This document shows, one piece after another, positions 19,602 through 57,718 of a stretch of DNA of 64,000 nucleotides. The DNA comes from an uncultured archaeon (GTDB taxonomy: Archaea > Aenigmatarchaeota > Aenigmatarchaeia > Aenigmatarchaeales > Aenigmatarchaeaceae), in contig CAYGBE010000155.1 of NCBI GenBank assembly GCA_964348065.1, positions 35,664 to 99,663 on the forward strand, read 5' to 3'. A model generated the notes under the pieces. That model ran no database searches and was not told where the DNA came from. It was given only the letters and a program-made list of their open reading frames with translations. The position numbers and the translations under genes are program-made. Within the stretch, counting starts at the first letter, position 1. The number at the start of each line of letters is the position of its first letter.

Positions 19602-22600
19602 ATGAATTTAAAGCCTTTTTTATTAATAGTTTTTTTATTATTAATATTATTATCTTATCCTGCTTATGCAGATATCTCTCAAGACATAAATAACTTTTTT
19701 GCTTCAATATTCAATTCAATAATCTCGTTCTTTAATTCCATATCTAGTGTATTATTTCCTACACCTCCTCCAACAGGAAATGGTGGAGGCAGTGGGAACG
19801 GTGATGGAGATGGCTTGGGATTACCACCTGGAGGATGTGCAATTGGTATGTCTTTCTCAACATCAGGAAAAGATACATGTAGTGTCAAAGCAACCATCAC
19901 TGCTAGAGATTGTGATGGTAAACCATATTCAATAAAAGATAATGGAAATACCAAATGCTCAGGAACCATATCTGGTGATAGCAGAACTATAGACTGTGAC
20001 TGGACAGTCACAACAGGTAGTTATACCTACAAATTATACGTTGATAATAAGTACAAAAGTTCTAAATCTGTTACTTGTTATGAAACACCTCCATGTTCTG
20101 CTTTTTTAACTTTAAATTCAATGGGAATTAATACATGCACTATAACAGCTACTATTAATGCCCAATACTGCAAGGATAAAATATACTCAATAGAAAGCAC
20201 TGCATGTTCAGGAACAATAGCTAGTGATAGCACTAGCTTTAATTGTGATTGGCAAGTTTCTTCAGCTGGTACTTATACATATAACTTATATATTGATGGC
20301 AGTCTTGAAACATCCAAGTCTGTCACATGCCCTGAACAAACATGTTCTTGTGGCAGTTGGCAGAATAAAGGTTGTGGAGAAGGAGGTTGTGCTTCTAATC
20401 AAATGTATCAAACAAGATCATGCAACCCATCTGCATGTGACACAGAAGAAAGATGTCAATCAGATGCAAGTTGTGAAACTGTATCAGATTGTGATTCTCA
20501 ATGTAAAGCACGAGAATTTGCCTCTGGAACTTGTAGACCCAGTATGAATGGAGAACTTATTTTCCGCTCTGGTTTTGAATCAGGTATTTATCTTGACAAT
20601 CCAACAACAGAAGGTGGTAATCAATGGTGGCAATGGCTAAAAGGAGAGGATGAAGGATACGCTTGGACAACAGATCTTCCATCACAATATGATTATGGAA
20701 GCCGTTTCCAATATCTAGTTTCATCAAGTCACAGCCAACAAGAACTAAACAATTATGTTGAAACACGAATTGATAATGTGATCGGACATGATGGTACATC
20801 TACAAGAGCTCTATATATGGATGTGAAAGATGACGATCCAGTTAATGATGGTTTAACTCGCAACCAATATAATGTGTATCTGGGCAATAGTCTTTCAGAA
20901 GCGTATGTTCGTTATTGGATAAAAATTCAACAAAACTTGAAAGATGTTATGCCTGAATCAAGTGGTTGGCGTATGATAATGGAGTGGAAAGAAACTGATG
21001 ATGATTATCGTTGGAACATTCACATCCAAAAAGATTCCAGTGGAAATTTATACTGGTATACCCAAGCACAATGGGGAACCTTGGGAAGTTCACCACAACA
21101 TTGGAATATAAAAAGTTACGATCCACAACCAGAATCTATTTTAGGAGAATGGGCCCTTCTTGAAGTATATTGGAAACACAGCACAGGTAGTGATGGTCGA
21201 GTTTGGGTTGCTATAAATGGTCAAACAGTGGCTGATTATCATGGTCAAAACAAAAAGAATAATGATGTATTTGGGTGGAATTTATTCAAAGTTTATACTG
21301 GTCCTTCACATCTTGCTTTAGGTAAACATTATCAATGGATAGATGATTTTGAACTTTGGAGTGAAATACCTACATCAACAGAAGCATGCCAACAAGGAGA
21401 AACTCCTATAGGACGGGGTGGTTGTTCTTTAGGAGAAACTTGTTGTTGTTCTGGAGTTCTTCAAAAATGTACAGATGGTACCATCTATGGTGAATGTTCA
21501 TCTACTAAACCAAAACACTGTGATAGTGGTAATCTAATTGATTATTGTTCTTACTGTGGCTGTGATATTGGATATGAATGTCAAGCTGATGAATCATGCA
21601 AGAAAAAGGAGGTTTCAACCTCGTTTAATATTTATCGTTATAAAAGTTTCGGGACAGCAGATAGTGTAGCAGATATTGCTGAATATTATGACATGACTCA
21701 AAGTTGGGGATATACCGGTTCAATGATTCCACAAATACATTCATTACGACCTGATTTCAAAGCCTTATTTTATCGTAATGTAAAGGCTGTTTATCCTTAT
21801 TGGGAAGATGAGTGGGAATTATTCAAGGCTAACAACTGGGTTTTGAAAGACTCAAGTGGAAATTATGTTTACTCTACTCATTATGGAGCAGAAAATTATA
21901 TGTTTGTAGACATTGGTAATTCTGACTATCAACAATGGGTATCAAACAAGATCAAAGAAGTATTAAATGAACATGGATTTGACGGAGTGTTTGCAGATGA
22001 AGGTCTATATGTTACTAGTAGTTGGGGATCTGCCTCTGGTGATCCAATTAATCCAAGAACAGGGAAAATATGGGAAGATGAGGAAGTTAAGAAAGCGTAT
22101 CTTGGTTTACACCAAAAAATTAAGCAAACTATTGGTTCTAAATTATTAATTGCCAATGGGATATGGCGTGGAAGAAGTTTTTATAATCATCAGAGCGATT
22201 TTTCTGAACTTTTGCAAAATTCACCTATGGATGGGTTCATGAGTGAAGGCATATGGTATACTTACAATGGATATTGGTTCAGCGAAGATTATTGGAAGAA
22301 AAGTCTTGATTTTTTGATTTGGGTCCAAGACAATTATTTGAGCACTAATAAGTACTTTGTACCTGTTTGCAGTCATCGTAACAATCCGAGTGGTGTTAGT
22401 AATGCTAAATTATCAAATTACTGCACAGCCTCACTTTTATTGGGTATAAAAGCTGGACAGAAAAACATATATTTCCACAATGGAGATATTGAATTCTTAA
22501 AAACTTATGGTCAAGAGCTTTTTGATAAGGCTAACAGTATTGGTGATCCTTCTGGAAGTTATTATATTGTTAATAAATTATATGTTCGTGATTTTTCTAA

Positions 22601-22739
22601 TGGAAAGGCTTTGGTCAATCCTACCTCATCAAGTTATACCATTAATCTTGGTCAAGAATATGAAAATTTAAATGGTCAAACAGTTTCTGGAACTTATACT
22701 GTGTATGCTCACACAGGAGAAATTTTAACAAAAGTATAA
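19602..22739 (+). CDS. secreted multidomain protein: Sec signal peptide, Gly-rich linker, two tandem Ig-like repeats, Cys-knot segment and a C-terminal TIM-barrel-like domain with a GFDGVFADEG motif (GH114-like?)
   Basis: 1045 aa. The signal peptide is MNLKPFLLIVFLLLILLSYPAYA, and two repeats of about 110 aa each end in TYTY[KN]LY[VI]D…KSVTC. Confidence 0.55.
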   Translation: MNLKPFLLIVFLLLILLSYPAYADISQDINNFFASIFNSIISFFNSISSVLFPTPPPTGNGGGSGNGDGDGLGLPPGGCAIGMSFSTSGKDTCSVKATITARDCDGKPYSIKDNGNTKCSGTISGDSRTIDCDWTVTTGSYTYKLYVDNKYKSSKSVTCYETPPCSAFLTLNSMGINTCTITATINAQYCKDKIYSIESTACSGTIASDSTSFNCDWQVSSAGTYTYNLYIDGSLETSKSVTCPEQTCSCGSWQNKGCGEGGCASNQMYQTRSCNPSACDTEERCQSDASCETVSDCDSQCKAREFASGTCRPSMNGELIFRSGFESGIYLDNPTTEGGNQWWQWLKGEDEGYAWTTDLPSQYDYGSRFQYLVSSSHSQQELNNYVETRIDNVIGHDGTSTRALYMDVKDDDPVNDGLTRNQYNVYLGNSLSEAYVRYWIKIQQNLKDVMPESSGWRMIMEWKETDDDYRWNIHIQKDSSGNLYWYTQAQWGTLGSSPQHWNIKSYDPQPESILGEWALLEVYWKHSTGSDGRVWVAINGQTVADYHGQNKKNNDVFGWNLFKVYTGPSHLALGKHYQWIDDFELWSEIPTSTEACQQGETPIGRGGCSLGETCCCSGVLQKCTDGTIYGECSSTKPKHCDSGNLIDYCSYCGCDIGYECQADESCKKKEVSTSFNIYRYKSFGTADSVADIAEYYDMTQSWGYTGSMIPQIHSLRPDFKALFYRNVKAVYPYWEDEWELFKANNWVLKDSSGNYVYSTHYGAENYMFVDIGNSDYQQWVSNKIKEVLNEHGFDGVFADEGLYVTSSWGSASGDPINPRTGKIWEDEEVKKAYLGLHQKIKQTIGSKLLIANGIWRGRSFYNHQSDFSELLQNSPMDGFMSEGIWYTYNGYWFSEDYWKKSLDFLIWVQDNYLSTNKYFVPVCSHRNNPSGVSNAKLSNYCTASLLLGIKAGQKNIYFHNGDIEFLKTYGQELFDKANSIGDPSGSYYIVNKLYVRDFSNGKALVNPTSSSYTINLGQEYENLNGQTVSGTYTVYAHTGEILTKV

Positions 22740-25132: not shown

Positions 25133-25224
25133 AGCGGGGTAGGGCAGCCAGGAGTGCCCGTCGGGCTCATAATTATTAATAAGAAACCCGAAGGTCGTAA
25201 GTTCAAATCTTACCCCCGCTACCA
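25133..25224 (+). tRNA. initiator-type tRNA-Met (CAT) with an approximately 14-nt intron at 37/38 and an encoded 3' CCA
   Basis: Acceptor AGCGGGG/CCCCGCT with A1:U72. Anticodon stem TCGGG/CCCGA (three G:C pairs next to the loop), loop CTCATA[intron ATTATTAATAAGAA]A. T-loop TTCAAAT, discriminator A, then CCA. Confidence 0.7.
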
Positions 25225-25226
25225 TA

Positions 25227-25379
25227 TTATTTTTTAAATCCTAAACTCTGAAAAACGTTAATCTCGTCTCCAATTTCTACTTCATCCTCAACATGAACTT
25301 CTTTCTTTCTCCCATTAACGAGAACAATAGCATTTTTATCTTTTATTTCAAGGACTTTCCCTTTTTGAACAAGACACAT
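25227..25379 (-). CDS. hypC: HypC/HupF-like hydrogenase maturation chaperone (short, 50 aa)
   Basis: Hand-translated: MCLVQKGKVLEIKDKNAIVLVNGRKKEVHVEDEVEIGDEINVFQSLGFKK. It has the N-terminal Met-Cys-Leu start and the …GDxxxV core typical of HypC. Under the track size cutoff. Confidence 0.45.
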   Translation of the reverse strand: MCLVQKGKVLEIKDKNAIVLVNGRKKEVHVEDEVEIGDEINVFQSLGFKK

Positions 25380-25383
25380 AATA

Positions 25384-25917
25384 TCATTTAGTTGTTTCGT
25401 CTTTAAATTTATTATAATAGTTTAATGCAGTTTCAAACTCTTTTTCATTCAAAATCATATGAATTTTATCTCTATGTAAAATTACCCAATTGCCAGTTTT
25501 TAATTCATTTTCAATTATTATTTCTGGATATGCTTCTGAATCTGTTTTTATTACTCTACCATCAACTGTTTCTACTATGAATTTAGAATCAAATTTATCA
25601 ACAATTTTAGCAGGATAAGCAGTACACCACTCAACTAATGTCTTATCATGTGTATATCTTTCTAACATTCTTATGTTTTTATTATGAACATAAAAAAAAT
25701 ATTCAAAGAAACCATATTTACTAACTCCTTCGTATGCCATTGGAAAAAATTTCTCTAATAAATTCTCATTAAAGTCTCCGGTTTTTAAAGAATTTTTAAT
25801 AACATCAATTTCTTCATTTGTCGGAACACTGGGACTAAATATTGATCTAGTTTCTCCTTCTCTTCTTAAGCAAGAAATAGCCATTTTTAAAAATCTTATC
25901 TTATCTTCTTTATTCAT
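25384..25917 (-). CDS. hypothetical protein directly upstream of and co-oriented with the hypC-like gene
   Basis: 177-aa ORF with no recognised motif. The 4-nt gap to hypC suggests co-transcription. Confidence 0.4.
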   Translation of the reverse strand: MNKEDKIRFLKMAISCLRREGETRSIFSPSVPTNEEIDVIKNSLKTGDFNENLLEKFFPMAYEGVSKYGFFEYFFYVHNKNIRMLERYTHDKTLVEWCTAYPAKIVDKFDSKFIVETVDGRVIKTDSEAYPEIIIENELKTGNWVILHRDKIHMILNEKEFETALNYYNKFKDETTK

Positions 25918-25952: not shown

Positions 25953-26360
25953 ATGAAAGCTGTTATGAGTTTAGGAAACCCAATCAAATCTGATGACAAT
26001 ATTGGAAACATTATTCTCGATAAATTAGATGATGATATAATCAAAATAAAAGCAGGAGTAATGCCTGAAAATTTTATTAAAGAATTGAAAGATTTTGATG
26101 AAATAATAATTATTGATGCTTTAGAGTTTGGAGGAGAAGTTGGTGAAGTTAGAACTTTTGAATTGAATGAAATTAAAGATAGTATAACATCAACTCATAA
26201 TATACCTATAAGTTTATTAAAAAATTTTTTACCTGATTCTAAAATTAAAATAATAGGAATTCAACCAAAAAATATTGAATTCGGAGAAAAATTGAGTGAA
26301 GAACTGGAAAGTAAAATCGAAGAAATAGTTGAAAGAGTTAACCTTTTTTTGAAACAATGA
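25953..26360 (+). CDS. hycI: hydrogenase maturation endopeptidase (HycI/HybD family)
   Basis: SLGNPIKSDDNIGNIILDKL … IIIIDALEFGGEVGEV matches the GNxxxxDDGxG … DA motifs of [NiFe] hydrogenase maturation proteases. Confidence 0.65.
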   Translation: MKAVMSLGNPIKSDDNIGNIILDKLDDDIIKIKAGVMPENFIKELKDFDEIIIIDALEFGGEVGEVRTFELNEIKDSITSTHNIPISLLKNFLPDSKIKIIGIQPKNIEFGEKLSEELESKIEEIVERVNLFLKQ

Positions 26361-27207
26361 ACGCTCCTAACAAAATTAAAACAGATCCTATGATTTGTAA
26401 TGGGAGTATAGTTTCTTCTAAAAATAAGTAAGATAGGAAAAGTGAAATTGGTGGAGATAATAAGAGTAAAGTAGAGGCTTTGGAAACTTTTATTAACTTT
26501 ATAGAATAATACCAAAAAAATACGTATAAAAACAAAATTGATACTGAAATTCCAATATAAAGAACTTGTTCAGATGTAAGTAATAGCAATTGATCAAATT
26601 TTCCTGTTAAAAGAACAATTGAAAACAGAACAATTGACGCAAAAAACATTCTACAAAAAGAAACAACAAAATTAGATTCCTTCTTTATCATTGCGTACTT
26701 TGATATAATATTTTCAACTGCAAAAAGAACTGTTGCAATAATAACTAGAAAATCTCCAATAGCAATATCAAAAGTTATTGCACTAGAAGATATTAGATAT
26801 GCTCCAATAATCATTACTATCATTGCATAAACTTGTATTCTATTTATTTTTTCTTTTAAAAAAGTAAAGGCAAGAACCGTAATGAACAAAGGCAAAAGTT
26901 TATGTAAAAAAGCTGTTCTTCCTGCAGTTGTTAATTTTAATCCATTAAAAAATGTTAAAAAACCAAAACCAGCAACAACACCTATTGATAAAAGAATTTT
27001 CCAAGGAACCTTGTTAAAGTTCTTAAAACTTAATTTATTTTTAAAAAATGAAATTATAAAAAATCCCAAACCAACAAAAAAAGTTCTTAATGAAGTAAAA
27101 AGAGTTGGATCTAATGACACAAGAAAAAACTTGTTTACCATAATGGCAAAACCACTCACTACAGCAGTTATTACAGCAAATAAAATTCCAATGTTTTCTT
27201 TATTCAT
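26338..27207 (-). CDS. EamA/DMT-family transporter (10-TM)
   Basis: 289 aa with a duplicated 5-TM architecture. Confidence 0.55.
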   Translation of the reverse strand: MNKENIGILFAVITAVVSGFAIMVNKFFLVSLDPTLFTSLRTFFVGLGFFIISFFKNKLSFKNFNKVPWKILLSIGVVAGFGFLTFFNGLKLTTAGRTAFLHKLLPLFITVLAFTFLKEKINRIQVYAMIVMIIGAYLISSSAITFDIAIGDFLVIIATVLFAVENIISKYAMIKKESNFVVSFCRMFFASIVLFSIVLLTGKFDQLLLLTSEQVLYIGISVSILFLYVFFWYYSIKLIKVSKASTLLLLSPPISLFLSYLFLEETILPLQIIGSVLILLGAFIVSKKG

Positions 27208-27538
27208 CTACAACATTTTTACTAACTTTCTTTTTATTCTTATCAGCATATTCAAAATCATTACTTAATTTTATTGCTTTAGGTTTGGCAGGACAATTAT
27301 CCTCACACAATTTACAGAATATGCATAAACCTTGATCGAAATCTATTTTTCCTTTTTTATGAAACTTAATAGCTCCAACAGGGCAGTATTTTTCACAAAG
27401 CCTACATCCTATGCATCTTTTAGGAAAATAATGAATTCTTCCTAAAAATCTAGGAAAGGGTATAACTCTTACTTTAGGATATCTTCTTGTAAAAGGTCTT
27501 TTGAAAAAATTCTTTATTGCTTCAATTTCTATTTTCAT
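27200..27538 (-). CDS. 2x[4Fe-4S] ferredoxin subunit of the membrane-bound hydrogenase (NuoI/EchF-like)
   Basis: CIGCRLCEKYCP and CIFCKLCEDNCP motifs. Confidence 0.75.
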   Translation of the reverse strand: MKIEIEAIKNFFKRPFTRRYPKVRVIPFPRFLGRIHYFPKRCIGCRLCEKYCPVGAIKFHKKGKIDFDQGLCIFCKLCEDNCPAKPKAIKLSNDFEYADKNKKKVSKNVVDE

Positions 27539-28383
27539 AAAATACCTCTCATTATTATTATAAAATCGATTAATGCCAATATCATAACTAGGAAATTAAC
27601 TTTGAAAGCTTGATCAACTCTATATCGTGGTGTGGTTGCCTGAGTATACGAATAAATAAATAAAAACAACAAACTCAAAGGTAAAATAACAAATATGTCT
27701 TTACCAAATAAAAGTAAGGGCATAAGAAAAACAAAAAATAATCTTTTCATGTAAGTGGCTAATTCAAAAAACGCTAAATTTTTTCCACTATATTCAGTTC
27801 CACTTCCACTCATTATTTCTGGGCCAGCTTCTGCAGTATCAAGAGGAGTTATGTGAAGTTCAACAATTAATATTGCAGCCAAAGCAGCAGAAGATATTGG
27901 AGCTGATAATAAAAGAAAAGTTGAATCAAAAAGACCCAAAGATAAAACGCCTGCTCTTATCATAAAATTAAAAACAACTATAACAAGTGCTATTTCATAA
28001 GCAAGCATCAATATCATTTCTCTCATAGAACCAACAATTCCAAAAGGATTATCAGAAGACAAACCAGCCAAAATGTAAAATGCACTTGATAAAATTGTGA
28101 TGTAAACTAAAATCACAAAATCAAAATTAAAAGCAATCAAAGAAAATGGAATAAACAAAAATAATGTGTAAGTTGAAAGAAAATAAAATAAAGGAGTATA
28201 ATTAAAAAAGGGATCATTCTGACTTCTTAATTTCTTTTTTTGAAAGAGTTTTATGATGTCATAAAAAGGCTGAATTATTGGTGGACCAATTCTGTTTTGT
28301 AATCTGGCATTTATTTTTCTATGCAAGCCTTCATAAAACATTGCAATAAATGGAATCAATAAAAAGAAAATTATTTCGTACAT
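27535..28383 (-). CDS. membrane subunit NuoH/EchB-like
   Basis: 282 aa polytopic protein with a conserved N-terminal RxxxRxGP-like region (QNRIGPPIIQPFYD). Confidence 0.65.
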   Translation of the reverse strand: MYEIIFFLLIPFIAMFYEGLHRKINARLQNRIGPPIIQPFYDIIKLFQKKKLRSQNDPFFNYTPLFYFLSTYTLFLFIPFSLIAFNFDFVILVYITILSSAFYILAGLSSDNPFGIVGSMREMILMLAYEIALVIVVFNFMIRAGVLSLGLFDSTFLLLSAPISSAALAAILIVELHITPLDTAEAGPEIMSGSGTEYSGKNLAFFELATYMKRLFFVFLMPLLLFGKDIFVILPLSLLFLFIYSYTQATTPRYRVDQAFKVNFLVMILALIDFIIIMRGIL

Positions 28384-29537
28384 GTATACTTCCTCCTAAA
28401 TTGGGCTTCATTTAAAACCTCTGTTTTTCCGTTTTTTACTATCATTACTCTTTCTAAACAGCTAAAGCAAGGATCCAAAGAACCAACTATAACTGGTATG
28501 TCCCCTATTTCTCTTTTTAACAAAATTTTTTCAACTATTTTTAATGTTGCAAAAGTTGGAGTTCTTATCTTAGCTCTCTCAATTTTATTATTCTTAAACT
28601 TAAGATAATAAAATAATTCTCCTCGTGGAGCTTCAACTCTCCCAACAGCTTCACCGTTTGGAATTTGTGTTAATGTAAATTTTGGTACAGGTTTTTTAGG
28701 TATCAATCTTAAAACTTGTTTTATTATTCTTATTGATTCTAAAATTTCTCTTAACCTAACAATAACTCTTGTTAAAGAATCACCATTATCTTCGATTATT
28801 TCTTCAAAATGAAATTTTTTGTATATGCCAAAGGGTGGATCTGTTTTTCTTATATCAGACTCTACACCACTTGCCCTAGCATTTGGTCCAACTATGCAGT
28901 ATCTTTTGGCATCTTCCTTTGTTATTACACCAACATCTTTTAATCTGGAAATTATTACATTGTCTTTTTTAATATCCCTAAGGTAATCTTCTGTTCTTTT
29001 TTTAAGAATCTCTAAATTTTTCAATATGAAAGCTTTGTCTTTTAAATCAAAATCATAGCTAACTGTTTTTATTTTATTAAAATTATGATGAACTCTTCCT
29101 CCTGTTAATTTTTCAAAAATATCAATTACCCTTTCTCTTTCTCTCCAGAAATACATAAACAAAGTTTCATAACCTATATCATGGGTTATTAAACCTAGCC
29201 AAAGAACATGGCTGTGCAATCTTTCTAGTTCCATCATCAAAGCCCTTATTAGTTTGACTTTTTCATTGAGTTTGAATTTCAAAATGTTTTCAACTGTTCT
29301 ACAATAAGCATTCTCATGAGCAGCAGAACAAATTCCACATATTCTTTGAGTCAAATACAAAGCTGAGTCAGGATTTTTTCCTTCTAAAATCTTTTCTATA
29401 CCTTTATGTGTATAACCCATTCTTATATTAACATCTTGGATATAGTTTCCATCTAGTTTAACCCTTATACACATTGGTTCCTTTAAAGCAGGATGCTGAG
29501 GACCTATTGGTATTATATAATCATGCATTCTTCTCAC
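28371..29537 (-). CDS. [NiFe] hydrogenase large subunit, group 4 (NuoD/EchE-like) with both Ni-binding Cys pairs
   Basis: N-terminal RICGICSAAH (RxCGxCxxxH) and C-terminal DPCFSCLER (DPCxxCxx[HR]). The Ni-ligand cysteines are retained, unlike in NuoD. Confidence 0.8.
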   Translation of the reverse strand: MRRMHDYIIPIGPQHPALKEPMCIRVKLDGNYIQDVNIRMGYTHKGIEKILEGKNPDSALYLTQRICGICSAAHENAYCRTVENILKFKLNEKVKLIRALMMELERLHSHVLWLGLITHDIGYETLFMYFWRERERVIDIFEKLTGGRVHHNFNKIKTVSYDFDLKDKAFILKNLEILKKRTEDYLRDIKKDNVIISRLKDVGVITKEDAKRYCIVGPNARASGVESDIRKTDPPFGIYKKFHFEEIIEDNGDSLTRVIVRLREILESIRIIKQVLRLIPKKPVPKFTLTQIPNGEAVGRVEAPRGELFYYLKFKNNKIERAKIRTPTFATLKIVEKILLKREIGDIPVIVGSLDPCFSCLERVMIVKNGKTEVLNEAQFRRKYTCTK

Positions 29538-29847
29538 TTTTTTTCAATAATGGTGGTTTTTTATTCCAATTATCTGGCAAGAATAATTTCAAATGTAATT
29601 TGGGATTTCCTTCAAACTCCACACCAAAAAAATCATGAATTTCTCTTTCATAATAATCTGCATTAGGAAAAATATCTACAATACTCTCGATAAATGGTTT
29701 CTTTTTTGAAATTTTAAATTTTAAAGCAATTATTTTTCCATTATCGTCAAAATAATAATTTAAAGCAAAATCTCCTTCATCTTTACAAACAATTGCTATT
29801 AGTCTTTTATCTTCAAACTTTCTTATTTCGTGTTTTGGGTCTTTCAT
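29521..29847 (-). CDS. NuoC/EchD-like subunit (very short, 108 aa)
   Basis: ADYYEREIHDFFGVEFEGNP resembles the NuoC signature ERExxDxxGxxF. Confidence 0.55.
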   Translation of the reverse strand: MKDPKHEIRKFEDKRLIAIVCKDEGDFALNYYFDDNGKIIALKFKISKKKPFIESIVDIFPNADYYEREIHDFFGVEFEGNPKLHLKLFLPDNWNKKPPLLKKSEKNA

Positions 29848-30238
29848 TTAACCTACCTAAAAGTTTTAATAAAGCATACATGATTGCTTCTGGTCTTGGT
29901 GGACATCCAGGAACATAAATATTAACAGGAATAACTTTGTCTGTTGGGCCTGCAAAATTGTATCCGGTTTTAAATGGACCACCGGTTATGGCACAAGAAC
30001 CAATTGCAACTACTACTTTGTTTTTTGCCATTTGATTATAGATGGTTTTTAATCTCTCTTTGTTTTGTTTATTAACAATTCCACTAACCAATAAAATGTC
30101 TGCATGTCTTGCACTTGCTCTTAACAAACAACCAAATCTTTCAATATCGTATCTAGGTGTTAGCAAAGCTGCTATTTCTATTATGCAACCATTACAACCT
30201 CCAACATCATAATTACAAATCCATGGTGATTTTTTCAT
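29813..30238 (-). CDS. [NiFe] hydrogenase small subunit, group 4 (NuoB/EchC-like)
   Basis: GGCNGCIIEI … GSCAITGG … GCPPRPE, the proximal-cluster Cys pattern of NuoB and group-4 small subunits. Confidence 0.8.
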   Translation of the reverse strand: MKKSPWICNYDVGGCNGCIIEIAALLTPRYDIERFGCLLRASARHADILLVSGIVNKQNKERLKTIYNQMAKNKVVVAIGSCAITGGPFKTGYNFAGPTDKVIPVNIYVPGCPPRPEAIMYALLKLLGRLNERPKTRNKKV

Positions 30239-30405
30239 AAACTAACACCTGCTAATAAAAGGAGAACAACCAAAACAAGGAATGTAATCCAAATCCATTT
30301 TTTATTAAAGAAATGTCCATATGCTTCTGGTGATAAATCTTCTGGATTATCTCTTTCTCCTCCTATGTAAAGATCTAAAACATGTTTTACTTTTTTCTTT
30401 TTCAT
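30235..30405 (-). CDS. 56-aa single-TM ORF translationally coupled between the antiporter-like and small-subunit genes
   Basis: Hand-translated: MKKKKVKHVLDLYIGGERDNPEDLSPEAYGHFFNKKWIWITFLVLVVLLLLAGVSL. ATGA overlaps at both ends (30402-30405 and 30235-30238). Confidence 0.35.
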   Translation of the reverse strand: MKKKKVKHVLDLYIGGERDNPEDLSPEAYGHFFNKKWIWITFLVLVVLLLLAGVSL

Positions 30406-31280
30406 ATTATCATCGATAATATTGCTAATTGTAATTGTGGAAGGAAACCTAAAACAATAAGAACAATAGCCAAAATTCCATTTAGAATTGTAATTTCTCT
30501 TGGTATATGTTTTTGTCTTGTTTTCCCTATCAACAAAAAGTAAACAACTTTATAATACATTATAAATAATAACAAAGCTGCAAAAACTCCAAGTATAGTT
30601 ATAACTGGTGTTATTACAAAACTTTTTGTAAATAACAACCATTCTGAAACAAACATATTAAAGGCTGGTAAACCTGCTAATGATAAGCATGCTATTGTTG
30701 CAAAAATATCATTCCACCTGTTAGCAAAATAAGAGCCTTCTAATTCATAAACATAAACTTTACCTCTTCCGAATATACCAATTGTTAAAAAGAAAGCTAA
30801 ACCAGCAAATGTGTAATTAAAGATTTGAATTGTACTTAATGGACCAAATCCACCGAATATTCTAGCAATTGACAAATCAGCCACAACAAACAAAATCTGA
30901 ATTGCATTTGATATTAACAAATATCTTTTCAACTTTCTTTCAAAAATTCCAAAAATTGCTAATGAGCATAAAACCAACAAAGACAACAAACCTATTAGCA
31001 AATAAAATCGAGAATGCATAAAAAACAAATTCAAAAAAAACCAAGAAAGAAGAACTGCTGTAAACATGTTAATTGTTATGAAGGTTGTCAGATTTAGTTT
31101 TTTATAAAATAACAAAACTATTAAAATCAAAAAAGATATTTGCCAATAAACAAATGAAATAAAAGAGAAAATTATTAGAAGTATAATTGAAAATAAGTTC
31201 TTTTTTTCATAAAAGAATGAAAATATTGATGTTGATATTCCTATTATTGAAATAAGAACTGCAAAAAAAGTTTGTATCAT
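30402..31280 (-). CDS. antiporter-like membrane subunit (NuoN/EchA/MbhH-like), short form
   Basis: 292 aa polytopic. The …LAGLPAFNMFVSEWLLF… segment resembles the GxPPxxGFxxK segment of Mrp/NuoLMN-type subunits. Confidence 0.45.
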   Translation of the reverse strand: MIQTFFAVLISIIGISTSIFSFFYEKKNLFSIILLIIFSFISFVYWQISFLILIVLLFYKKLNLTTFITINMFTAVLLSWFFLNLFFMHSRFYLLIGLLSLLVLCSLAIFGIFERKLKRYLLISNAIQILFVVADLSIARIFGGFGPLSTIQIFNYTFAGLAFFLTIGIFGRGKVYVYELEGSYFANRWNDIFATIACLSLAGLPAFNMFVSEWLLFTKSFVITPVITILGVFAALLLFIMYYKVVYFLLIGKTRQKHIPREITILNGILAIVLIVLGFLPQLQLAILSMII

Positions 31281-44123: not shown

Positions 44124-46361
44124 GTGGTTTTTGAGGGTGAAGTCACAGATGGAATCTTGAGAGTAAATTGTTTAGGGTCTATTTTTGGTTTTACTCTTGA
44201 AGATTCTGATGTTGTGATGGCTAGAGTTATTGAAAAGCTAATTGAAGAAAGAAAAGTTGTTGGTATTGTTTTAGCAGAAACAAGAGAATATGAATATGAT
44301 TATGAACAAACAAAAATGTTAACACAAATTGCCAATGCCATCATGAAAGCTTTAAGAGAAGAAAGAATAGTTTCAATAAAAAATATTGCAACTGGCAAAT
44401 GTGCAAAATATTTAGGGGTTTGGTATACATGGTTAAGGGATTTGGTAACATTGCAATTAAGAGGAGACCCAATAGGTGCTTATTTAAATTTAACAAGAGA
44501 GATCAGACACTTGAAAACTAAAGCTAAAACTTCAGAAGAATATGCAAGATGCGTAGATCATTATCTTAAGAATGCTTTGTTTCCTTTGAAAGAGCTTCTA
44601 GATGCTTGTGAATTAATTCAAAAAGCAAAACCATTTCTAGTTGGTTATCATATTGGCGACAGGAAACTTTATAGAAAGTTTTTCAGACCAACAACAAGAC
44701 CAAATTTCATGTACACAAAATTCATGACGCAAGCACCTCCAGGAGAACCAATTGATAAATATAAAGTTGAGAATATAGACATTGAGATATTTAAGGTTCC
44801 TGGAAAGATAAGGTATATTTATCATGTTGTTCCTCCTGAATTTAAATTAAGTGAGGAAGAATATACTCTCTTAGACGCTGCAAGAAGAATCTTAGAAAGA
44901 AGAAGACCAAGAGAACTAGAAATAGCAGAACAAGAAAAAATGAGAGAGCTCTTTCATACTCTAAGTTTAGATTTATTAGAAGACTTGTCAGAAGAAATGG
45001 GAAAACCTTTTGAAAAAGGAAAAATGGAAGCATTGGCAGCAATGCTAACAAGACATACTGCAGGTCTAGGAATATTAGAAATTTTATTAAGAGACAGTAA
45101 AATAGAAGATATTTTTATTAATTCTCCTTTAGGCAATTTACCAATTTTTATTAATCATCAAGAGTTTGAAGAATGTGAAACAAACTTAGTTCCTACACAA
45201 GCAGATGGTAACAGATGGTCAACAAGGTTTAAACTTATATCAGGAAGACCTTTGGATGAGGCAAATCCTGTTTTAGACGCAGAAGTTACTGTACCTGGCG
45301 GAGTTGCAAGAATTGCTGCAATATATCCAAGATTATCTCCTGATGGATTGGGTTTTGCAATAAGAAGACACAGATTTAAACCATGGACATTTCCCTTGTT
45401 CCTAAATGAAAAGTTTTTGAATGGTTTATTTGGAGGATTAATTTGGTTTTTAGCTTCATATGGAAGAACTTATTTGGTTGCTGGTTCAAGAGGTGCTGGA
45501 AAAACTTCTTTTCTTGGATCAACCATGTTACAAATATTACCTTACTATAGAATCTTAATCTCAGAAGATACTTTGGAACTTCCTGTTGAACAACTAAGAA
45601 ATTTGGGTTATAATATTCAAAGACTAAAATCAAGGTCTGTTATAACAAGAGTTGAATTAGAGCTGCCTGCAGAAGAGGTTGTTAGAACTGCACTAAGATT
45701 AGGAGATTCTTGCTTATTCATAGGAGAAATTAGAAGTGTAGAAGCAAAAGCTTTGTTTGAAGCTATGAGAATTGGAGCAATGGCAAATGTTGTTGCTGGA
45801 ACAATTCACGGAGAATCTGCTTACGGAGTCTTTGATAGAATTGTAAATGATTTAGGAGTTCCTCCAACAAGTTTCAAAGCAACAGACTTGGTCATTGTTT
45901 GTAACAAACTAAAAACTCCAGATGGTTTAAAAACATTTAGAAGAATAACAGAGGTAACAGAAGTCAGAAAGCACTGGAAAAAAGATCCTGCTGATGAAGG
46001 TGGTTTTGTAAATCTTATGGAATATCATGCTGGAGAAGATACCTTGAAAGCAACTGACACTTTATTAAATGGTGAATCACAAATTTTAAACCAAATTGCT
46101 GAAAGGGTTCCTGGATGGACTGGAAGGTGGGAACGTGTTTGGGATAACATTCTATTAAGAGCCAAAATTTTAGATACTGTTGTTGATATTGCTAAAAAAG
46201 TTAATAACCTAGATCTGCTAGAAGCCGAAACAACAATAAAAGTAAATGAAATGTTTCATGAATTCGCTGAAAAATCCAGAAAGGAGATAGGAGTTGTTGA
46301 TAGTAAAAGAGTTTATGAAAACTGGTTGGATTGGTTTAAGAAATACGCAAAGGCTGTTTAA
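44124..46361 (+). CDS. secretion/pilus-assembly ATPase of the FlaI/TadA/VirB11 (GspE) superfamily with a long N-terminal extension
   Basis: Walker A LVAGSRGAGKTSFLGS, Asp box ILISEDTLEL, Walker B RLGDSCLFIGEIRSVEA, His box AGTIHG. Walker A sits near residue 455, against about 265 in FlaI. Confidence 0.85.
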   Translation: MVFEGEVTDGILRVNCLGSIFGFTLEDSDVVMARVIEKLIEERKVVGIVLAETREYEYDYEQTKMLTQIANAIMKALREERIVSIKNIATGKCAKYLGVWYTWLRDLVTLQLRGDPIGAYLNLTREIRHLKTKAKTSEEYARCVDHYLKNALFPLKELLDACELIQKAKPFLVGYHIGDRKLYRKFFRPTTRPNFMYTKFMTQAPPGEPIDKYKVENIDIEIFKVPGKIRYIYHVVPPEFKLSEEEYTLLDAARRILERRRPRELEIAEQEKMRELFHTLSLDLLEDLSEEMGKPFEKGKMEALAAMLTRHTAGLGILEILLRDSKIEDIFINSPLGNLPIFINHQEFEECETNLVPTQADGNRWSTRFKLISGRPLDEANPVLDAEVTVPGGVARIAAIYPRLSPDGLGFAIRRHRFKPWTFPLFLNEKFLNGLFGGLIWFLASYGRTYLVAGSRGAGKTSFLGSTMLQILPYYRILISEDTLELPVEQLRNLGYNIQRLKSRSVITRVELELPAEEVVRTALRLGDSCLFIGEIRSVEAKALFEAMRIGAMANVVAGTIHGESAYGVFDRIVNDLGVPPTSFKATDLVIVCNKLKTPDGLKTFRRITEVTEVRKHWKKDPADEGGFVNLMEYHAGEDTLKATDTLLNGESQILNQIAERVPGWTGRWERVWDNILLRAKILDTVVDIAKKVNNLDLLEAETTIKVNEMFHEFAEKSRKEIGVVDSKRVYENWLDWFKKYAKAV

Positions 46362-48451
46362 TGATTTTAAAAAAAAAGGACAAGAAAACAAAGAAACTTG
46401 CAAAAGCTTTAATGAAGGCCGAGGAAGCAAAAAGAATAGAAATGCAAAAAGTTTTGAAAATAAGTGAAATAAAAATTCCTGAAAAAAGAGAATTCTATCC
46501 TTATCCACGAGAGTACATGACATTTTTAGAAGAAGTTAAAATAAAACCAAAAACCCTTTATGAAAAAGCATGCCATTTTGCAGAAGGTTTATTCCCAATA
46601 GAGCCTGGAGGAAAGACAAGGGAAAAAATTTTAGAAAGTTTAAGGGCTGCTTACATTAATTCAACCCCTAGAGGATCATTCTCTTTGGCAATCTTAATAA
46701 CAATGTTCATGATCGTATTTGCCATGTTTTATATTGTATTCATAGGTACTGATGTTTTTGGTTTCTTTGGTTTTGGTTTTGCTTTCGTAGTATTTTGGTA
46801 TTTCTACAATTATCCAGCTGCCAGAGCCAAAACAATTAGTGTGAGAATGTCTTCTGATGCTGTTCTTGCAATTTTATACATGGTCATTTACATGAGAGCT
46901 TCTCCTAATTTGGAGGGAGCAATAAAATTTGCATCTAAAAATTTGGACAGTCCTTTAGGATGGGACTTAAGAAAATTGTTGTGGGACATAGAAATTGGAA
47001 GATATTCTTCAGGCAATGAGGCTTTGGTTGTCTATGTAACAAAATGGAAGGAAAAAAACAAAGAATTTGCAGAAGCTTTGAATTTACTAAGAGGTTCCGC
47101 AGTTGAAATGAAGAGAAGAAAAATGGTTTATGATGAAACAATAGATGTTATATTAAATGGAACACTAGAAAGGGCAAAACATTATGCAGCAGAACTAAGA
47201 ATGCCAATGATGCTTATTTATGCTGTTGGTGTTTTGCTTCCTGTTATGGGTTTGGTTTTGTTTCCAATAATCTTAATATTTATTTCAGACGTTGTGAAAC
47301 CAAGTTTTGTGATTTTTGGTTATGATATTCTTTTGCCGTTATTTCTTTACTTTATTGTTAATCATATACTATCAACCAAACCTCCAACCTTTTCTCCGCC
47401 AAACATATCTAAAGCAAAAGGGGTTCCCCCAATGGGAAAATTTGCCTTGGGAAATGCTTTGATTCCAATATGGCCTATAGCCCTACTAGTATCTTTACCA
47501 TTTATATTCGCAGGATTGATGGGATTGTCAGACCCTGACCCTTATTATTCTGTTACATTTTCTATTGTAATTATTTTTGGGATTGCAATGATAGTATCTA
47601 CTTATGCGTTTTTAGATTCTTATCAAAAAAACAGAGTCAGAAAGGATATAGAAAAAATTGAAAATGAGTTTGCAGTAGCATTGTTCCAGCTTGGTAATAT
47701 AATTGCAGGAGGTACTCCTCTTGAAAAGGCTATTGATCAAGTAAAAGTAAATCTAAAAGAATTAAAGATTGTTGATATGTTTGATTTAATAAGTCTGAAC
47801 ATAAAAAAGTTTGGTTATACTTTTGAACAAGCTCTGTTTGACAAAGAGGTTGGAGCAATATGGTACTATCCATCAAGCTTAATTCAATCAATAATGAAAA
47901 CTGTGATAGAGTCTTCAAAGAAAAACATTAGAACAGCCGCAAACTCAATGGTTGTAATATCAAGATATTTGAAAGGAGTTCATGAAGTTAAAGAAGAGAT
48001 AAACGAAATTTTAGGTGAAACAGTTTCTAGCATGAAATTTTTAGCAATGTTTCTATCTCCAATGGTTGCAGGTGTTACTGTAACTTTGGCTGTAATTATA
48101 TTAAGAATATTAGAAAACTTAGGGGCTGCCATGGAAGGCATAATGGGAACAGCTGGTGCTACTGGTAGTTTAAACGCAGCACAAACAATGTTAATGATTC
48201 CTTGGGCAATGGGAGGAGAATTACCAATCTCGCCCACATCATTTCAGTTGATTGTTGGTGTTTACATGATTGAAACTGCTATTTTATTAGCCGTATTTTT
48301 AAATGGAATTCAATATGGAGAAGACCCTGTTGGCATGAGGAACAATGTCTGGAATATTCTATTAATTGGTATAATATTGTACACTATAAGTTGGTTTGTC
48401 ACATATTCTATGTTTGGAGGAACAATAGAGGGTTTGTTAGCCCCGGTATAA
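46361..48451 (+). CDS. FlaJ/TadC-like polytopic membrane platform protein (two T2SSF-like cytoplasmic domains)
   Basis: 696 aa. Basic cytoplasmic N-terminus and two helical cytoplasmic domains between TM bundles. Start overlaps the ATPase stop (TAATGA). Confidence 0.7.
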   Translation: MILKKKDKKTKKLAKALMKAEEAKRIEMQKVLKISEIKIPEKREFYPYPREYMTFLEEVKIKPKTLYEKACHFAEGLFPIEPGGKTREKILESLRAAYINSTPRGSFSLAILITMFMIVFAMFYIVFIGTDVFGFFGFGFAFVVFWYFYNYPAARAKTISVRMSSDAVLAILYMVIYMRASPNLEGAIKFASKNLDSPLGWDLRKLLWDIEIGRYSSGNEALVVYVTKWKEKNKEFAEALNLLRGSAVEMKRRKMVYDETIDVILNGTLERAKHYAAELRMPMMLIYAVGVLLPVMGLVLFPIILIFISDVVKPSFVIFGYDILLPLFLYFIVNHILSTKPPTFSPPNISKAKGVPPMGKFALGNALIPIWPIALLVSLPFIFAGLMGLSDPDPYYSVTFSIVIIFGIAMIVSTYAFLDSYQKNRVRKDIEKIENEFAVALFQLGNIIAGGTPLEKAIDQVKVNLKELKIVDMFDLISLNIKKFGYTFEQALFDKEVGAIWYYPSSLIQSIMKTVIESSKKNIRTAANSMVVISRYLKGVHEVKEEINEILGETVSSMKFLAMFLSPMVAGVTVTLAVIILRILENLGAAMEGIMGTAGATGSLNAAQTMLMIPWAMGGELPISPTSFQLIVGVYMIETAILLAVFLNGIQYGEDPVGMRNNVWNILLIGIILYTISWFVTYSMFGGTIEGLLAPV

Positions 48452-48483: not shown

Positions 48484-50010
48484 ATGAAAGCAATTATGGT
48501 TAGTCTTGTTAAAAATCTTATTATTGTTTTAATAGTGTTTCTTTTGGGTCTTGGATTGCTTCTTTTAGCACGTGATGCTTTTTTAGGAAAATCCCTCGAA
48601 CAATTTAAAAGATTCAAAGTTTACAAACCTTACATTTTTAACGTAAATGATTTGTTAGTAGATCCAAATGACCCAGATGTTTTTGATGCAGGTGAATTAA
48701 GTAATTACCTTTCAACAACTTTTTGCAGTGATCTTAAAAATTGTTTAGAAGTGAATGCCAGAGGCGGAGAAAAATGCGTTATAAGTTATAAAGTTGAACC
48801 TAATGTAGATCTTGATCCTGATGACATTAGAATTGCCATAAACAACTGCCCCACAGAAGATATAAAGGAAGAGTTGTACGGTGGAATAGGAAGAAAGGTA
48901 TGTGGATTTAAGAGTGATTCGCTCAACCCAAATATAGACAGAATCAGAGAAGATAACATAACAATTGTGGATTATCAACCTTATTTGCATAACTGTTATC
49001 TTCCAGAAAGTCTTGGGACAAAAAATATTTTTGATGAAAAAGATAAGATTTATTATTTTTATAGTGGTAGGGGAGATGTGAGTGGATATGATTTTGAAAA
49101 CGGCGGAATAGTAAGAATAGTTATAACTAATGTTAGTGTAGTAGGTCTTTATGCAGACTGCTCTTATAGTGTTTATGTTTGTGGACAAAATGCCATAGCA
49201 GAATCTGAAGACGAAACACCAGTTGATGTTTTTAGAACTGTTCAGAACTTGCCTGAAGAAGAGCTCTACTATAATGAAACAGTCATTTGGAAGGGTGATA
49301 CACCTCAGGATTTTTTACAAATTTCTTTATGGTGGCTTCTTTGTAAGCCTTTTGAACTAATTGTTCCATTTCTAGATTGTGGAGATCTACCAAATCCAAT
49401 AAATTACAATATTTATGGCTATCACCCACGTACTTATGAATTTACATTTAATTCAAGCGGTTGTCTTTCACGCGGGACTTGTAGGGAAGCTTTAATTGAT
49501 GCTGCAGACGCTGGAATATGGGAATGGGGTAAAAAAAATTATAAAAAAGATAAAACAATGAAATACTTTAGAGATTCTTATTATCCAGACATAATGCGCA
49601 ATTATTTCAGCTATTCACCTATTGATATTAATAACATTTCGTATGATTCGGCAATAGCCTTTGGCTCAGGATGTTGGAATGTTAACTATGAAAATACAAA
49701 CACTGTTTACAGGCAAAGATTAATTTTTGGTGATGATGTTTTTATTGATTCAAATAGTCTATATCATATTTTTAATTTCAGTTCGCCTTTTAATCTAAAC
49801 GCAAACGAAAAATTAAGAATGAGTCTGGGAATTAAAAAAATATTTATTACGGGTAAGATGTATCATATTTTAATTGAAATGCCACCACTTATAATTTTAG
49901 ATAAAGAATCATCCAGACTTAAAGATGTTAAAGATACATATAATCTAAGAGATGATTTCGAATCAAGAACAATATTAGTTATGGATCCCATAACATTTTG
50001 TAGTGAATAA
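48484..50010 (+). CDS. giant-adhesin family paralog 1: pilin-like N-terminus (MKA + hydrophobic helix), Cys-containing extracellular protein
   Basis: 508 aa. N-terminus MKAIMVSLVKNLIIVLIVFLLGLGLLLLA. Shared signature DCSYSVYVCGQNAIAESEDE. N-terminal domain (GGIGRKVCGFKSDSLN) aligns with paralog 2. Confidence 0.6.
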   Translation: MKAIMVSLVKNLIIVLIVFLLGLGLLLLARDAFLGKSLEQFKRFKVYKPYIFNVNDLLVDPNDPDVFDAGELSNYLSTTFCSDLKNCLEVNARGGEKCVISYKVEPNVDLDPDDIRIAINNCPTEDIKEELYGGIGRKVCGFKSDSLNPNIDRIREDNITIVDYQPYLHNCYLPESLGTKNIFDEKDKIYYFYSGRGDVSGYDFENGGIVRIVITNVSVVGLYADCSYSVYVCGQNAIAESEDETPVDVFRTVQNLPEEELYYNETVIWKGDTPQDFLQISLWWLLCKPFELIVPFLDCGDLPNPINYNIYGYHPRTYEFTFNSSGCLSRGTCREALIDAADAGIWEWGKKNYKKDKTMKYFRDSYYPDIMRNYFSYSPIDINNISYDSAIAFGSGCWNVNYENTNTVYRQRLIFGDDVFIDSNSLYHIFNFSSPFNLNANEKLRMSLGIKKIFITGKMYHILIEMPPLIILDKESSRLKDVKDTYNLRDDFESRTILVMDPITFCSE

Positions 50011-50164
50011 AAATGAGAGGTCTTGATAAGGGTACAATCATAGCAATATTTGTTTTAGTCTTATGTTTATTAATTTTCTTTTTGATCTTAATAGATGTTT
50101 TTAATTTTGATATAACAAATCTAATACCACTCTGATATTTATATCCGTAATTTAAAATAAAATT

Positions 50165-52660: not shown

Positions 52661-52944
52661 AAACATTTATAATTTTAAATAAAAAAATTATCCTGGTCTT
52701 TTATAAACATACTTAACTTCACTTTTTCTCTTTTTATAGAATAACCAAATTAAGTAAATGGCAAGTATAATGAGTAAAGGTAGAAAAACAAGGAAAGATA
52801 AAATAAGTAGTAAAATTATAATCTTTTTTTGGTTTGACTTAAAAAATTCTTTTATACCCATATATATTCTTAAATAACAGCGGTTTAAATATTTTTTGAA
52901 ACAATATCAACACTAATTTATATACGGAAAATTAAAAATAAAAT

Positions 52945-53580
52945 ATGGAAAAGGGGCAATTCGTTCTTTATATTGTTTTGACAGTTGTACTTTTGGCACT
53001 TGTTTTTGTTTTTGTTACTCAAATGTTGTCTTTATCAGAAAGGGCTGAAGAAGAGCTCTCACCCACACTTGAAGAACCAGAAGAAGTTTTAGAATCCAGA
53101 TACACTTCATTGGTCTTATCTCCTGAAGATTTACCAGAAGATATAATTTACAAACTGTTTAGACATTTTGATCCAGTATTTTTAAATGAAACAAGTGGTC
53201 CAATAGTACTTTATAATGTATTTATATTGGACCTCAAAGGAAATGAGTATGATGATACTACTGGTTTTTTGATAGAAAACTTAACAGAAGGTATAGAAGA
53301 CTTTAGTGCTTATGATAATCTCTATCAAATAGGTAGGGATGCTCAACAACCACCAAATTGTGGAGCTGTACAAAGAACTAATGTTATAAATTATAATAAT
53401 GACTGTTGGAGTGGCGTTTTAGCCCTTGTTGGGCCCTGCAGTATTTATGTGAATGGTGATGCAAACGATAAATTTAATGATAGAATAAAAATAAGAGTAA
53501 TGTGGCGATTTACAGGATTAACATCACCTATTACAGATAGAGAAATAATTCGCCCCATAGTAACAATATGTGATGGTTGA
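52945..53580 (+). CDS. pilin-like protein (211 aa) with a class-III-signal-like N-terminus
   Basis: MEKGQFVLYIVLTVVLLALVFVFV: K-G followed immediately by a 20-residue hydrophobic helix, as in archaeal prepilins. Confidence 0.5.
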   Translation: MEKGQFVLYIVLTVVLLALVFVFVTQMLSLSERAEEELSPTLEEPEEVLESRYTSLVLSPEDLPEDIIYKLFRHFDPVFLNETSGPIVLYNVFILDLKGNEYDDTTGFLIENLTEGIEDFSAYDNLYQIGRDAQQPPNCGAVQRTNVINYNNDCWSGVLALVGPCSIYVNGDANDKFNDRIKIRVMWRFTGLTSPITDREIIRPIVTICDG

Positions 53581-54136: not shown

Positions 54137-54181
54137 AATAATCATAATGGTATCTAATAATGCCATATATAGTGGTGTAAA

Positions 54182-54626: not shown

Positions 54627-54671
54627 AAACGATTTAGTTAATTTTATATTAAAAGAAGAGAAATTGAAAAT

Positions 54672-57701: not shown

Positions 57702-57718
57702 ATTAAAAGAGATAGTTC

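Follow-up and report, generated by a model that had tools for sequence, protein, structure and literature searches.

Group 4 [NiFe] hydrogenases and their relatives in the complex I family are the closest described systems to a gene cassette on the minus strand (27200-31280) of a stretch of DNA of 64,000 nucleotides from an uncultured archaeon of the Aenigmarchaeota (DPANN); the whole stretch is referred to here as the window. The cassette consists of seven overlapping open reading frames (ORFs), designated H', I', J, K, L, M and N in reading order, and keeps both Ni-ligand Cys pairs of a group-4 [NiFe] hydrogenase. Its product is probably a compact membrane-bound [NiFe] hydrogenase of seven subunits that depends on ferredoxin, evolves H2 and would have the Mbh architecture without the Mrp sodium module. 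Li et al. (2021) described non-thermal Aenigmarchaeota metagenome-assembled genomes (MAGs) with "membrane-bound hydrogenases (group 4)" (PMC8407114); thus, the presence of the enzyme itself is not new. Published assignments of the Aenigmarchaeota enzymes do not go beyond "group 4". No description was found in the searchable literature of the anatomy reported here, namely an Mbh-type core, half of an antiporter-like subunit and a subunit of about 50 residues. The cassette anatomy is a conserved variant within a known enzyme class.

The distal genes of the mbh operon have the order mbhH-I-J-K-L-M-N. Ech operons have the order echA-B-C-D-E-F, with the NuoH-like echB directly after echA. EchA contains about 640 amino acids (aa) and MbhI about 115. 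In the solved members of the superfamily, three or four interface loops are located around the active site or Q-site, and one of these is the "ND3 loop" (Loop 1); it is contributed by the transmembrane (TM) helices TM1-2 of NuoA/ND3 in complex I, by TM1-2 of MbhI in the membrane-bound hydrogenase (MBH), by TMH15-16 of MbsH' in the membrane-bound sulfane reductase (MBS) and by TMH15-16 of HycC in formate hydrogenlyase (FHL) (PMC7684303, PMC8165549, bioRxiv 10.1101/2022.03.21.484881). For Ech complexes in the broad sense "a minimum of six subunits" was given by Katsyv and Mueller (PMC9356269).

The gene order in the window (antiporter-like protein, small membrane protein, NuoB, NuoC, large subunit, NuoH, NuoI) is that of mbhH-I-J-K-L-M-N. 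The cassette resembles MBH of P. furiosus (MbhA-N; PDB 6CFW; Mrp-linked group 4d) in the order of these seven distal genes, in having a gene for a separate small membrane subunit between H and J, in the NiFe site with a relay Glu, and in that the best solved relatives of L, M and (together with MBS) H' are MBH chains. It differs from MBH in the absence of the Mrp Na+ module MbhA-G, and no Mrp-type module was present elsewhere in the window or in the relatives, the upstream genes being those for a Na+/Ca2+ exchanger and a P-type ATPase. MbhH has 510 aa and 14 TM helices, whereas H' has 292 aa and about nine TM helices, lacks the Lys/His axis and carries Glu in place of Lys409. MbhI possesses two TM helices and a lateral helix, whereas I', with 56 aa, has one TM helix and no detectable sequence similarity to MbhI. 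FHL of E. coli (Hyd-3, HycB-G; PDB 7Z0S) shares the minimal two-subunit membrane arm, a Glu at the TM12 site and the processing of a C-terminal extension by HycI, and its large subunit HycE is 35% identical to L; unlike the cassette, it has a HycC with 16 TM helices and a C-terminally fused ND3-like loop (here the element would be a separate 56-aa protein), an input module of HycB and FdhF, and a NuoC domain fused within HycE. MBS (PDB 6U8Y) provides with MbsH' the top match of the H' profile (2.2e-13) and shows the ND3-loop element directly after the antiporter-like module, but it lacks NiFe ligands and is no hydrogenase, and MbsH' is of full length with TMH15-16 fused to it. Metazoan ND2 is a precedent for an N-terminally truncated antiporter-like subunit, and ND2 chains of 345-347 aa were among the Foldseek matches of H'; ND2 lost only TM1-3, whereas H' is short of about five helices and of most charged residues. 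Judged by gene order and solved relatives, the cassette is Mbh-like rather than Ech-like in architecture.

Related loci were obtained by scanning species-representative genomes with a profile of H', which yielded 35 distinct loci, and these were re-annotated by BLAST of all ORFs. The cassette H'-I'-J-K-L-M-N was found in essentially every locus of sufficient length, usually with hycI directly after N on the opposite strand. Close homologues came from MAGs of Candidatus Aenigmatarchaeota, with synteny of the whole cluster including the genes for the Na+/Ca2+ exchanger, the P-type ATPase, an EamA transporter, HycI and RNase HII. In close relatives from Aenigmatarchaeota, H' and I' were 82-91% identical to those of the window, and H' was 100% identical to an NCBI protein on a contig of 113 kb. 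The carriers were labelled as Aenigmatarchaeota, Woesearchaeota, Iainarchaeum (Diapherotrites), Micrarchaeota, Nanoarchaeota or only "archaeon"; the label Methanosarcinales is doubtful. The cassette was also present in Theionarchaea DG-70 and on a contig of 573 kb which is syntenic with DG-70. Because of these theionarchaeal carriers it is not simply a product of genome reduction in DPANN archaea, and it is not confined to reduced genomes, the setting named in the original prediction. The G+C content is about 0.27-0.30 within the cluster and in its surroundings and therefore does not indicate recent import.

Five of the seven ORFs were identified by Pfam together with NCBIfam models, as NuoB-, NuoC-, large-subunit-, NuoH- and NuoI-type proteins (Table 1). 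L matched the Pfam families Complex1_49kDa (1.1e-62) and NiFeSe_Hases (1.8e-21); its top match in the PDB was MbhL (6cfw_L, 3.7e-67), with HycE behind (9.7e-63). The motifs RICGICSAAH and DPCFSCLER are present in its translation, and the Ni-Fe ligands C67, C70, C357 and C360 align with Cys68, 71, 374 and 377 of P. furiosus MbhL. E20 aligns with Glu21 of MbhL, which is the proton-relay Glu (PMC7684303; bioRxiv 10.1101/2024.03.16.585322). DPCFSCLER is followed by a C-terminal extension of 25 aa. Every relative with a complete large-subunit ORF has kept CGIC..H, DPCxxCxER and an extension of 22-33 aa, the consensus of the latter being V.VVKDGK.E.L.E..FRRKY. J contains the motifs GGCNGC, GSCA and GCPPRPE, with the four Cys for the proximal [4Fe-4S] cluster and none for another cluster, and two Fer4 motifs are found within the 112 aa of N. 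The equivalents of K in most relatives did not exceed about 95-126 aa; these are lengths of longest ORFs and thus upper bounds. The top PDB match of M was MbhM (6cfw_M, 4e-21), and in this alignment E130 and E197 of M correspond to E141 and E221 of MbhM. By its motifs, the cassette encodes a true [NiFe] hydrogenase of group 4 rather than a complex of the NuoD type, as had been proposed originally; the small-subunit motifs GGCNGC and GCPPRPE and the NuoH-like, NuoI-like and short NuoC-like (108 aa) subunits described at that time were also recovered. By sequence, the catalytic and electron-transfer parts are complete, with the four Cys ligands and the relay Glu in L, the proximal cluster in J and two [4Fe-4S] clusters in N.

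Some of the related loci showed deviations. In L001:6950-8126 and L002:5030-6130 (the closely related Aenigmatarchaeota MAGs GCA_011773475.1 and GCA_012975005.1) the small-subunit gene was shortened (119 aa) or split (60 + 82 aa), and one of the two loci had in addition an N-terminally shortened H'; these defects are either assembly frameshifts or incipient pseudogenes. In the uncultured archaeon MAG contig CAYZVE010000031.1 (L034:3569-5650, plus strand) the NuoB-type small subunit comprised 693 aa, with an apparent intein. The insert starts with CITGDTEV, contains the LAGLIDADG-type blocks LGLIESDGY and GGYFDGDGS, ends with ...FLISN|C and directly precedes the first Cys of the motif for the proximal cluster (…NCSG|CNGC…). 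Such an element appears to be uncommon in small subunits of hydrogenases. Unrelated genes were found between M and N in L007 (a membrane-anchored protein of 293 aa, L007:10895-11776), between K and L in L038 (a protein of 385 aa, L038:8793-9950) and between EamA and hycI in L001 (a PKD/beta-helix surface protein of 1356 aa, L001:11619-15689).

A Pfam scan of H' gave no match, and in an MrpD-type NCBIfam model only the C-terminal part (293-495 of 521) was matched (8e-9). When the family profile of H' was compared with the PDB, MbsH' (residues 206-478) was followed by MbhH (residues 279-482, 1.3e-12); H' 37-290 was aligned with the former and H' 94-286 with the latter segment. H' thus corresponds roughly to TM6/7-TM14 of the canonical 14 TM helices, TM1-5 having been lost. 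The AlphaFold2 (AF2) model of H' (predicted local distance difference test, pLDDT, 93; predicted TM-score, pTM, 0.91) shows nine long helices, two of which are kinked or broken at 28-44/46-57 and 188-201/208-223, matching the broken TM7 and TM12 of the antiporter-like fold. With Foldseek about 250 residues could be superposed at about 3 A on NuoN, NdhB, HycC and MbhH, with query-normalised TM-scores of about 0.7 against NuoN, NdhB and HycC. From the databases, at least 140 clusters with lengths of about 290-305 aa could be aligned with H' from end to end, the lowest identities being about 38-40%; shortness is therefore an ancestral property of the family rather than an artefact of truncation. 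The abnormally short antiporter-like subunit of 292 aa which had been noticed before belongs to a family of about 300 aa.

Invariant or nearly invariant in this family are W214 and the intramembrane polar residues S124, Q128, D135, Q152, N155, Y156, N208 and E213. E213, which is present in at least 90% of the members, stands at the key site of TM12 and corresponds to K409 of MbhH; HycC of E. coli likewise has Glu at the TM12 site (GFAGEW, compared with FVSEW in H'). The Glu of the LEGSY motif of H' (E180 by count on the translation) aligns with E375 of MbhH, for which contact with the MbhI loop was found in simulations (bioRxiv 10.1101/2024.03.16.585322). A cleft filled with lipid separates MbhM from the TM12 side of MbhH in MBH, and Glu141 of MbhM is situated opposite Lys409 (PMC8679088). 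The family alignment contains no conserved Lys in the equivalents of TM7 and TM8, and the TM11 His/His/Lys positions are occupied by Q152, Y156 and G160. H' thus does not show the canonical 14 TM helices with an axis of TM5 Glu, TM7 Lys, TM8 Lys and TM11 His/Lys; it has only about nine. We infer that H' is that half of the antiporter-like subunit which contacts the NuoH-like anchor, including the broken TM12, and that most of the canonical proton wire is gone.

The 56-aa ORF is a real gene under purifying selection. An ORF of 47-59 aa was present in each of the 35 distinct related loci between H' and J, including three in which it had been missed by BLAST, and in most cases it had the same overlap of 4 nucleotides (nt) with the upstream gene. 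Values of dN/dS for I' were 0.10-0.19 in pairs with unsaturated synonymous sites. The claim of a translationally coupled extra subunit, which was based on the ATGA stop/start overlaps on both sides, is borne out by these values and by the equivalents in all of the loci. The members of the family have a basic N-terminus, the motif [IV]-Y-[ILM]-G-G-E-x-D, a conserved Pro, the motif [YF]-x-x-F-F-x-K and one hydrophobic helix; conserved loop positions are Y13-x-G15-G16-E17 ... P26 ... F32-F33, and G16, E17, P26 and F32 are invariant across a set of 27 sequences. A variant Y-x-C-G-E occurs in L005, L017 and P0201. AF2 on the family alignment predicted, for the isolated chain, a confident TM helix (35-55), two short juxtamembrane helices and an N-terminal loop with pLDDT of about 50-60; a low confidence is expected for a segment which is ordered only within the complex.

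An exhaustive search of 1.84 billion cluster representatives with a hidden Markov model (HMM) of I' yielded only 53 proteins at E <= 1e-3. All except two were small family members (43-117 aa), named, where at all, "hypothetical protein"; in the related MAGs at NCBI the 56-aa ORF was called, and it was labelled in the same way only. The two long proteins are leucine-rich-repeat proteins with a chance TLYIGGxKVEGELVIP repeat and were rejected as members of the family. An apparent fusion of the small-ORF motif to NuoB in L022 and L027 was also ruled out, since re-translation gave a separate ORF in another frame. A Pfam scan of 27 family members gave no match, and a profile search in the PDB gave RPB12 and EMC10 only, at E > 1, which were regarded as chance matches.

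The position and topology of I' fit MbhI; sequence similarity to anything outside the I' family is absent. H' ends directly after TM14, and I' is the sole remaining membrane protein, colinear with mbhI and translationally coupled to H'. In MBH, mbhI directly follows mbhH, and in MBS and FHL the ND3-like element forms a C-terminal fusion with the antiporter-like subunit. Since all solved members have an ND3 loop, and in view of the end of H' after TM14 and of the position of I', the latter would by elimination be the ND3-loop element. I' most likely supplies the ND3/MbhI loop which would otherwise be missing from the enzyme, reduced to the loop and one TM helix.

In the proposed function, pyruvate would be converted by pyruvate:ferredoxin oxidoreductase (POR) to acetyl-CoA and reduced ferredoxin, and acetyl-CoA would yield acetate and ATP by ADP-forming acetyl-CoA synthetase (ACD). 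Reduced ferredoxin would dock on N, electrons would pass from N to J and to the NiFe site, and protons would be reduced there to H2. Eight groundwater Aenigmarchaeota MAGs with Pfams for the NiFe large subunit and HycI all contained acdA and porA, D and G, with porB missing in one (PMC8407114, Data Set S1). The occurrence of por and acdA in MAGs carrying the enzyme supports the reoxidation of ferredoxin by the hydrogenase with release of H2. The membrane arm would consist of the anchor M, the remnant H' with nine TM helices and I' with one; the conserved cytoplasmic loop of I' would reach into the interface of L, J and M, with the TM helix of I' packed between M and H'. The formation of H2 could be coupled to ion translocation by one proton path at most, from Glu130 of the E-channel of M to Glu213 of H'. 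This membrane arm may be the smallest in the complex I family. That the cassette is the smallest natural member of complex I and the energy-converting hydrogenases which still couples, through a single path of M, H' and I', is a tentative suggestion and rather doubtful.

Table 1. Genes of the hydrogenase cassette and its flank in the window, with coordinates and the main matches.
Feature	Position	Strand	Remarks
H', truncated antiporter-like (MrpD/MbhH/NuoN-type) membrane subunit	30402..31280	-	292 aa, ~9 TM helices
I', small membrane subunit	30235..30405	-	56 aa, one C-terminal TM helix
J, hydrogenase small subunit (NuoB/MbhJ-like)	29813..30238	-	141 aa; Oxidored_q6 1.4e-33
K, short NuoC/MbhK-like subunit	29521..29847	-	108 aa; Complex1_30kDa 4.6e-22
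L, [NiFe] large subunit	28371..29537	-	388 aa from GTG, or 385 aa from ATG at 29528
M, NuoH/MbhM-like membrane anchor	27535..28383	-	282 aa; NADHdh 2.8e-52
N, NuoI/MbhN-like 2x[4Fe-4S] ferredoxin-type subunit	27200..27538	-	112 aa; Fer4 matches, TIGR01971 NuoI 2.2e-21
EamA/DMT-family transporter	26338..27207	-	overlaps end of N by 8 nt; EamA Pfam match on L001 orthologue
HycI-type maturation endopeptidase	25953..26360	+	135 aa; PF01750 1.5e-16; TIGR00072 87 bits vs cut-off 47
177-aa protein, weak C-terminal HypC-like domain	25384..25917	-	HupF_HypC 7.8e-4 over 98-167, below Pfam cut-off
50-aa HypC-like protein, starts MCL...	25227..25379	-	HupF_HypC 2.8e-5, below Pfam cut-off

Neighbouring genes of the cassette overlap, from H' to N, by 4, 4, 35, 17 (8 with the ATG start of L), 13 and 4 nt. 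The whole cassette comprises about 1,380 residues, and the membrane arm about 18 TM helices (9 + 1 + 8). The gene hycI is located within about 1 kb of the 3' end of the operon and is syntenic in most related loci; from the conserved C-terminal extension of L and the adjacent hycI, maturation of L, a predicted substrate of HycI, by C-terminal cleavage is expected. The 177-aa gene is syntenic with hycI in Aenigmarchaeota loci (52-81% identity), and the 50-aa gene is conserved beside it. In the 177-aa protein the HypC-like domain begins at an internal Cys (…EWCTAYPAKIV…) after an unassigned domain of about 97 aa, and a PDB search with this protein gave no match; it could possibly be an accessory or maturation factor. 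The 50-aa HypC-like protein is truncated and begins with MCLVQKG…. The arrangement of N and EamA is repeated in several lineages, namely in L001, L007, L010, L012 and L015, with EamA nearby in L005, L025 and L037; the EamA gene is possibly co-transcribed with the cassette.

Several observations weigh against the proposed ferredoxin-dependent, H2-evolving enzyme with I' as its loop subunit. No statistically supported sequence similarity was found between I' and MbhI, NuoA/ND3 or the C-terminus of HycC, and a targeted hmmsearch of I' against NuoA, ND3 and the HycC C-terminus was equally negative. The TM helix found ahead of the loop in NuoA and MbhI is missing from I', and a lateral helix is not evident; the placement of I' in the complex is one which we infer. 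The sequence Y-x-[G/C]-G-E-x-D recalls PYECGFDP of ND3, PFESGIDS of NuoA and WVCGYD of HycC at the level of a motif only, and because the statistics were negative this likeness is treated as a lead only. However, MbhI is a Thermococci-specific family (PMC9258230) and could not be detected by sequence search starting from NuoA, and thus the missing similarity of I' is no argument against functional equivalence. H' is without nearly all residues which are deemed essential for antiporter-type proton transfer, so that ion pumping may be absent. Finally, no HypA, HypB, HypD, HypE or HypF was detected in the window or in related loci totalling about 500 kb, save for one HypA, whose gene adjoins the Diapherotrites cluster; tblastn with HypA-F of E. 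coli against the same sequences gave only HycI and weak HypC matches. In Data Set S1 the HypA and HypD Pfams were scored absent in each of the eight groundwater MAGs which carry the enzyme, and the KEGG table of Li et al. contains hypD and hypE in a single MAG (PMC8407114). The absence of Hyp may reflect incompleteness of MAGs or annotation thresholds; Aenigmarchaeota might also mature the [NiFe] enzyme without HypD/E/F, by other factors (e.g., the 177-aa HypC-like protein) or by those of a host.

If ions are not pumped, the enzyme could be a membrane-anchored ferredoxin:H+ oxidoreductase which serves only for the disposal of reducing equivalents, with H' and I' as structural remnants stabilising the anchor. 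This is possible, although we would not expect it; the loss of TM1-5, of the Lys in TM7 and TM8 and of the TM11 His/Lys from H' fits such a role, as do the flanks without an Mrp module and the very small amount of energy which the ferredoxin/H+ couple yields (PMC9356269). Purely structural remnants usually drift more than H' does, which is conserved in full length to about 38% identity with invariant or nearly invariant polar intramembrane residues, and both the TM12 acid of H' and the partner Glu of M are retained. In the original prediction it was considered that a lack of maturation genes would point to a degenerate relic, i.e., that without HypD/E/F no NiFe(CN)2CO cofactor would be made and the genes would be decaying. 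The first part of this consideration may apply, since HypA and HypD appear to be absent in relatives, and Hyp genes were not found in the window and related loci and are scored absent in published MAG tables. The second part does not agree with the strong purifying selection: phylum-level divergence has left all Cys ligands, the relay Glu, the cleavage extension and hycI in place, even the 56-aa gene has a dN/dS well below 1, and the intein of L034 is inserted at the cluster-binding motif, which is typical of functionally constrained sites. The conservation of the cassette and the purifying selection on I' make an inactive relic very unlikely despite the missing Hyp proteins.

An operation in reverse, in which an ion gradient would drive the reduction of ferredoxin by H2, as by Eha, Ehb and Ech in methanogens, appears quite unlikely. 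Enzymes of group 4 can work in both directions (PMC9356269), one homologue of H' carries the JGI label "energy-converting hydrogenase B subunit F", and Ehb occurs also in Theionarchaea (PMC9635834); but the cluster contains NuoC- and NuoI-like subunits and not the many small membrane subunits of Ehb and Eha, the host MAGs are fermentative (POR and ACD), and reversal driven by a gradient is hardly to be expected of a degenerate channel. An identity of H' with EhbF or EhaH, to which this label points, was set aside, as the cluster is without the small Ehb subunits; the literature gave no lengths or sequences. With respect to the class of the enzyme, the original prediction had named it Ech-type. 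The Ech hydrogenases (EchA-F of Methanosarcina barkeri, Ech2 of Thermoanaerobacter kivui; group 4e) likewise have a simple ferredoxin-dependent core of six subunits and no Mrp module, and since this core is the Ech minimum in the sense of PMC9356269, the name was partly right. Micrarchaeota, another DPANN group, are reported to carry a group 4e enzyme, as cited in PMC8561730. A group 4e hydrogenase with a lineage-specific extra peptide is nevertheless unlikely, because the gene order is not echABCDEF, in which the NuoH-like gene stands directly after the antiporter-like gene and no seventh small subunit occurs; here, as in mbh, a gene for a small membrane protein separates the antiporter-like from the small-subunit gene. 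Compared with EchA, which is of full length, the antiporter-like subunit has half the size, and the best solved relatives are MBH and MBS chains, although the comparison included no Ech structure and no Ech chain appeared among the PDB matches of L.

Other features of the window may be mentioned. At 25133-25221 (plus strand) a tRNA of 89 nt was detected by Rfam (52 bits) and not reported by ARAGORN; it may be an archaeal tRNA with an intron. Several predicted surface proteins of very large size, rich in Cys or in repeats, are encoded at 4104-5732, 19602-22739 and 48484-62089 (plus strand), and a pair of genes for an archaeal type-IV-pilus/archaellum-like ATPase and a membrane protein is located at 44124-48451. 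The surface proteins and the pilus-like pair are consistent with a cell-surface-intensive, possibly host-attached lifestyle.

The membrane arm of FHL was described by its authors as the minimal one of the superfamily, with 24 TM helices; with about 18 TM helices, the cassette is a natural deletion experiment on the parts which are needed for coupling, and, if the coupling through M, H' and I' were true, it would define the minimal coupling unit of the superfamily. Its small size makes it attractive for heterologous expression and cryo-electron microscopy. Should HypD/E/F really be missing from relatives, it would be doubtful whether every [NiFe] hydrogenase requires the six Hyp proteins. To this DPANN archaeon, whose genome is reduced, the enzyme would provide a route to reoxidise the ferredoxin from pyruvate oxidation, perhaps with a small ion gradient, which bears on the independence of its energy metabolism from a host.

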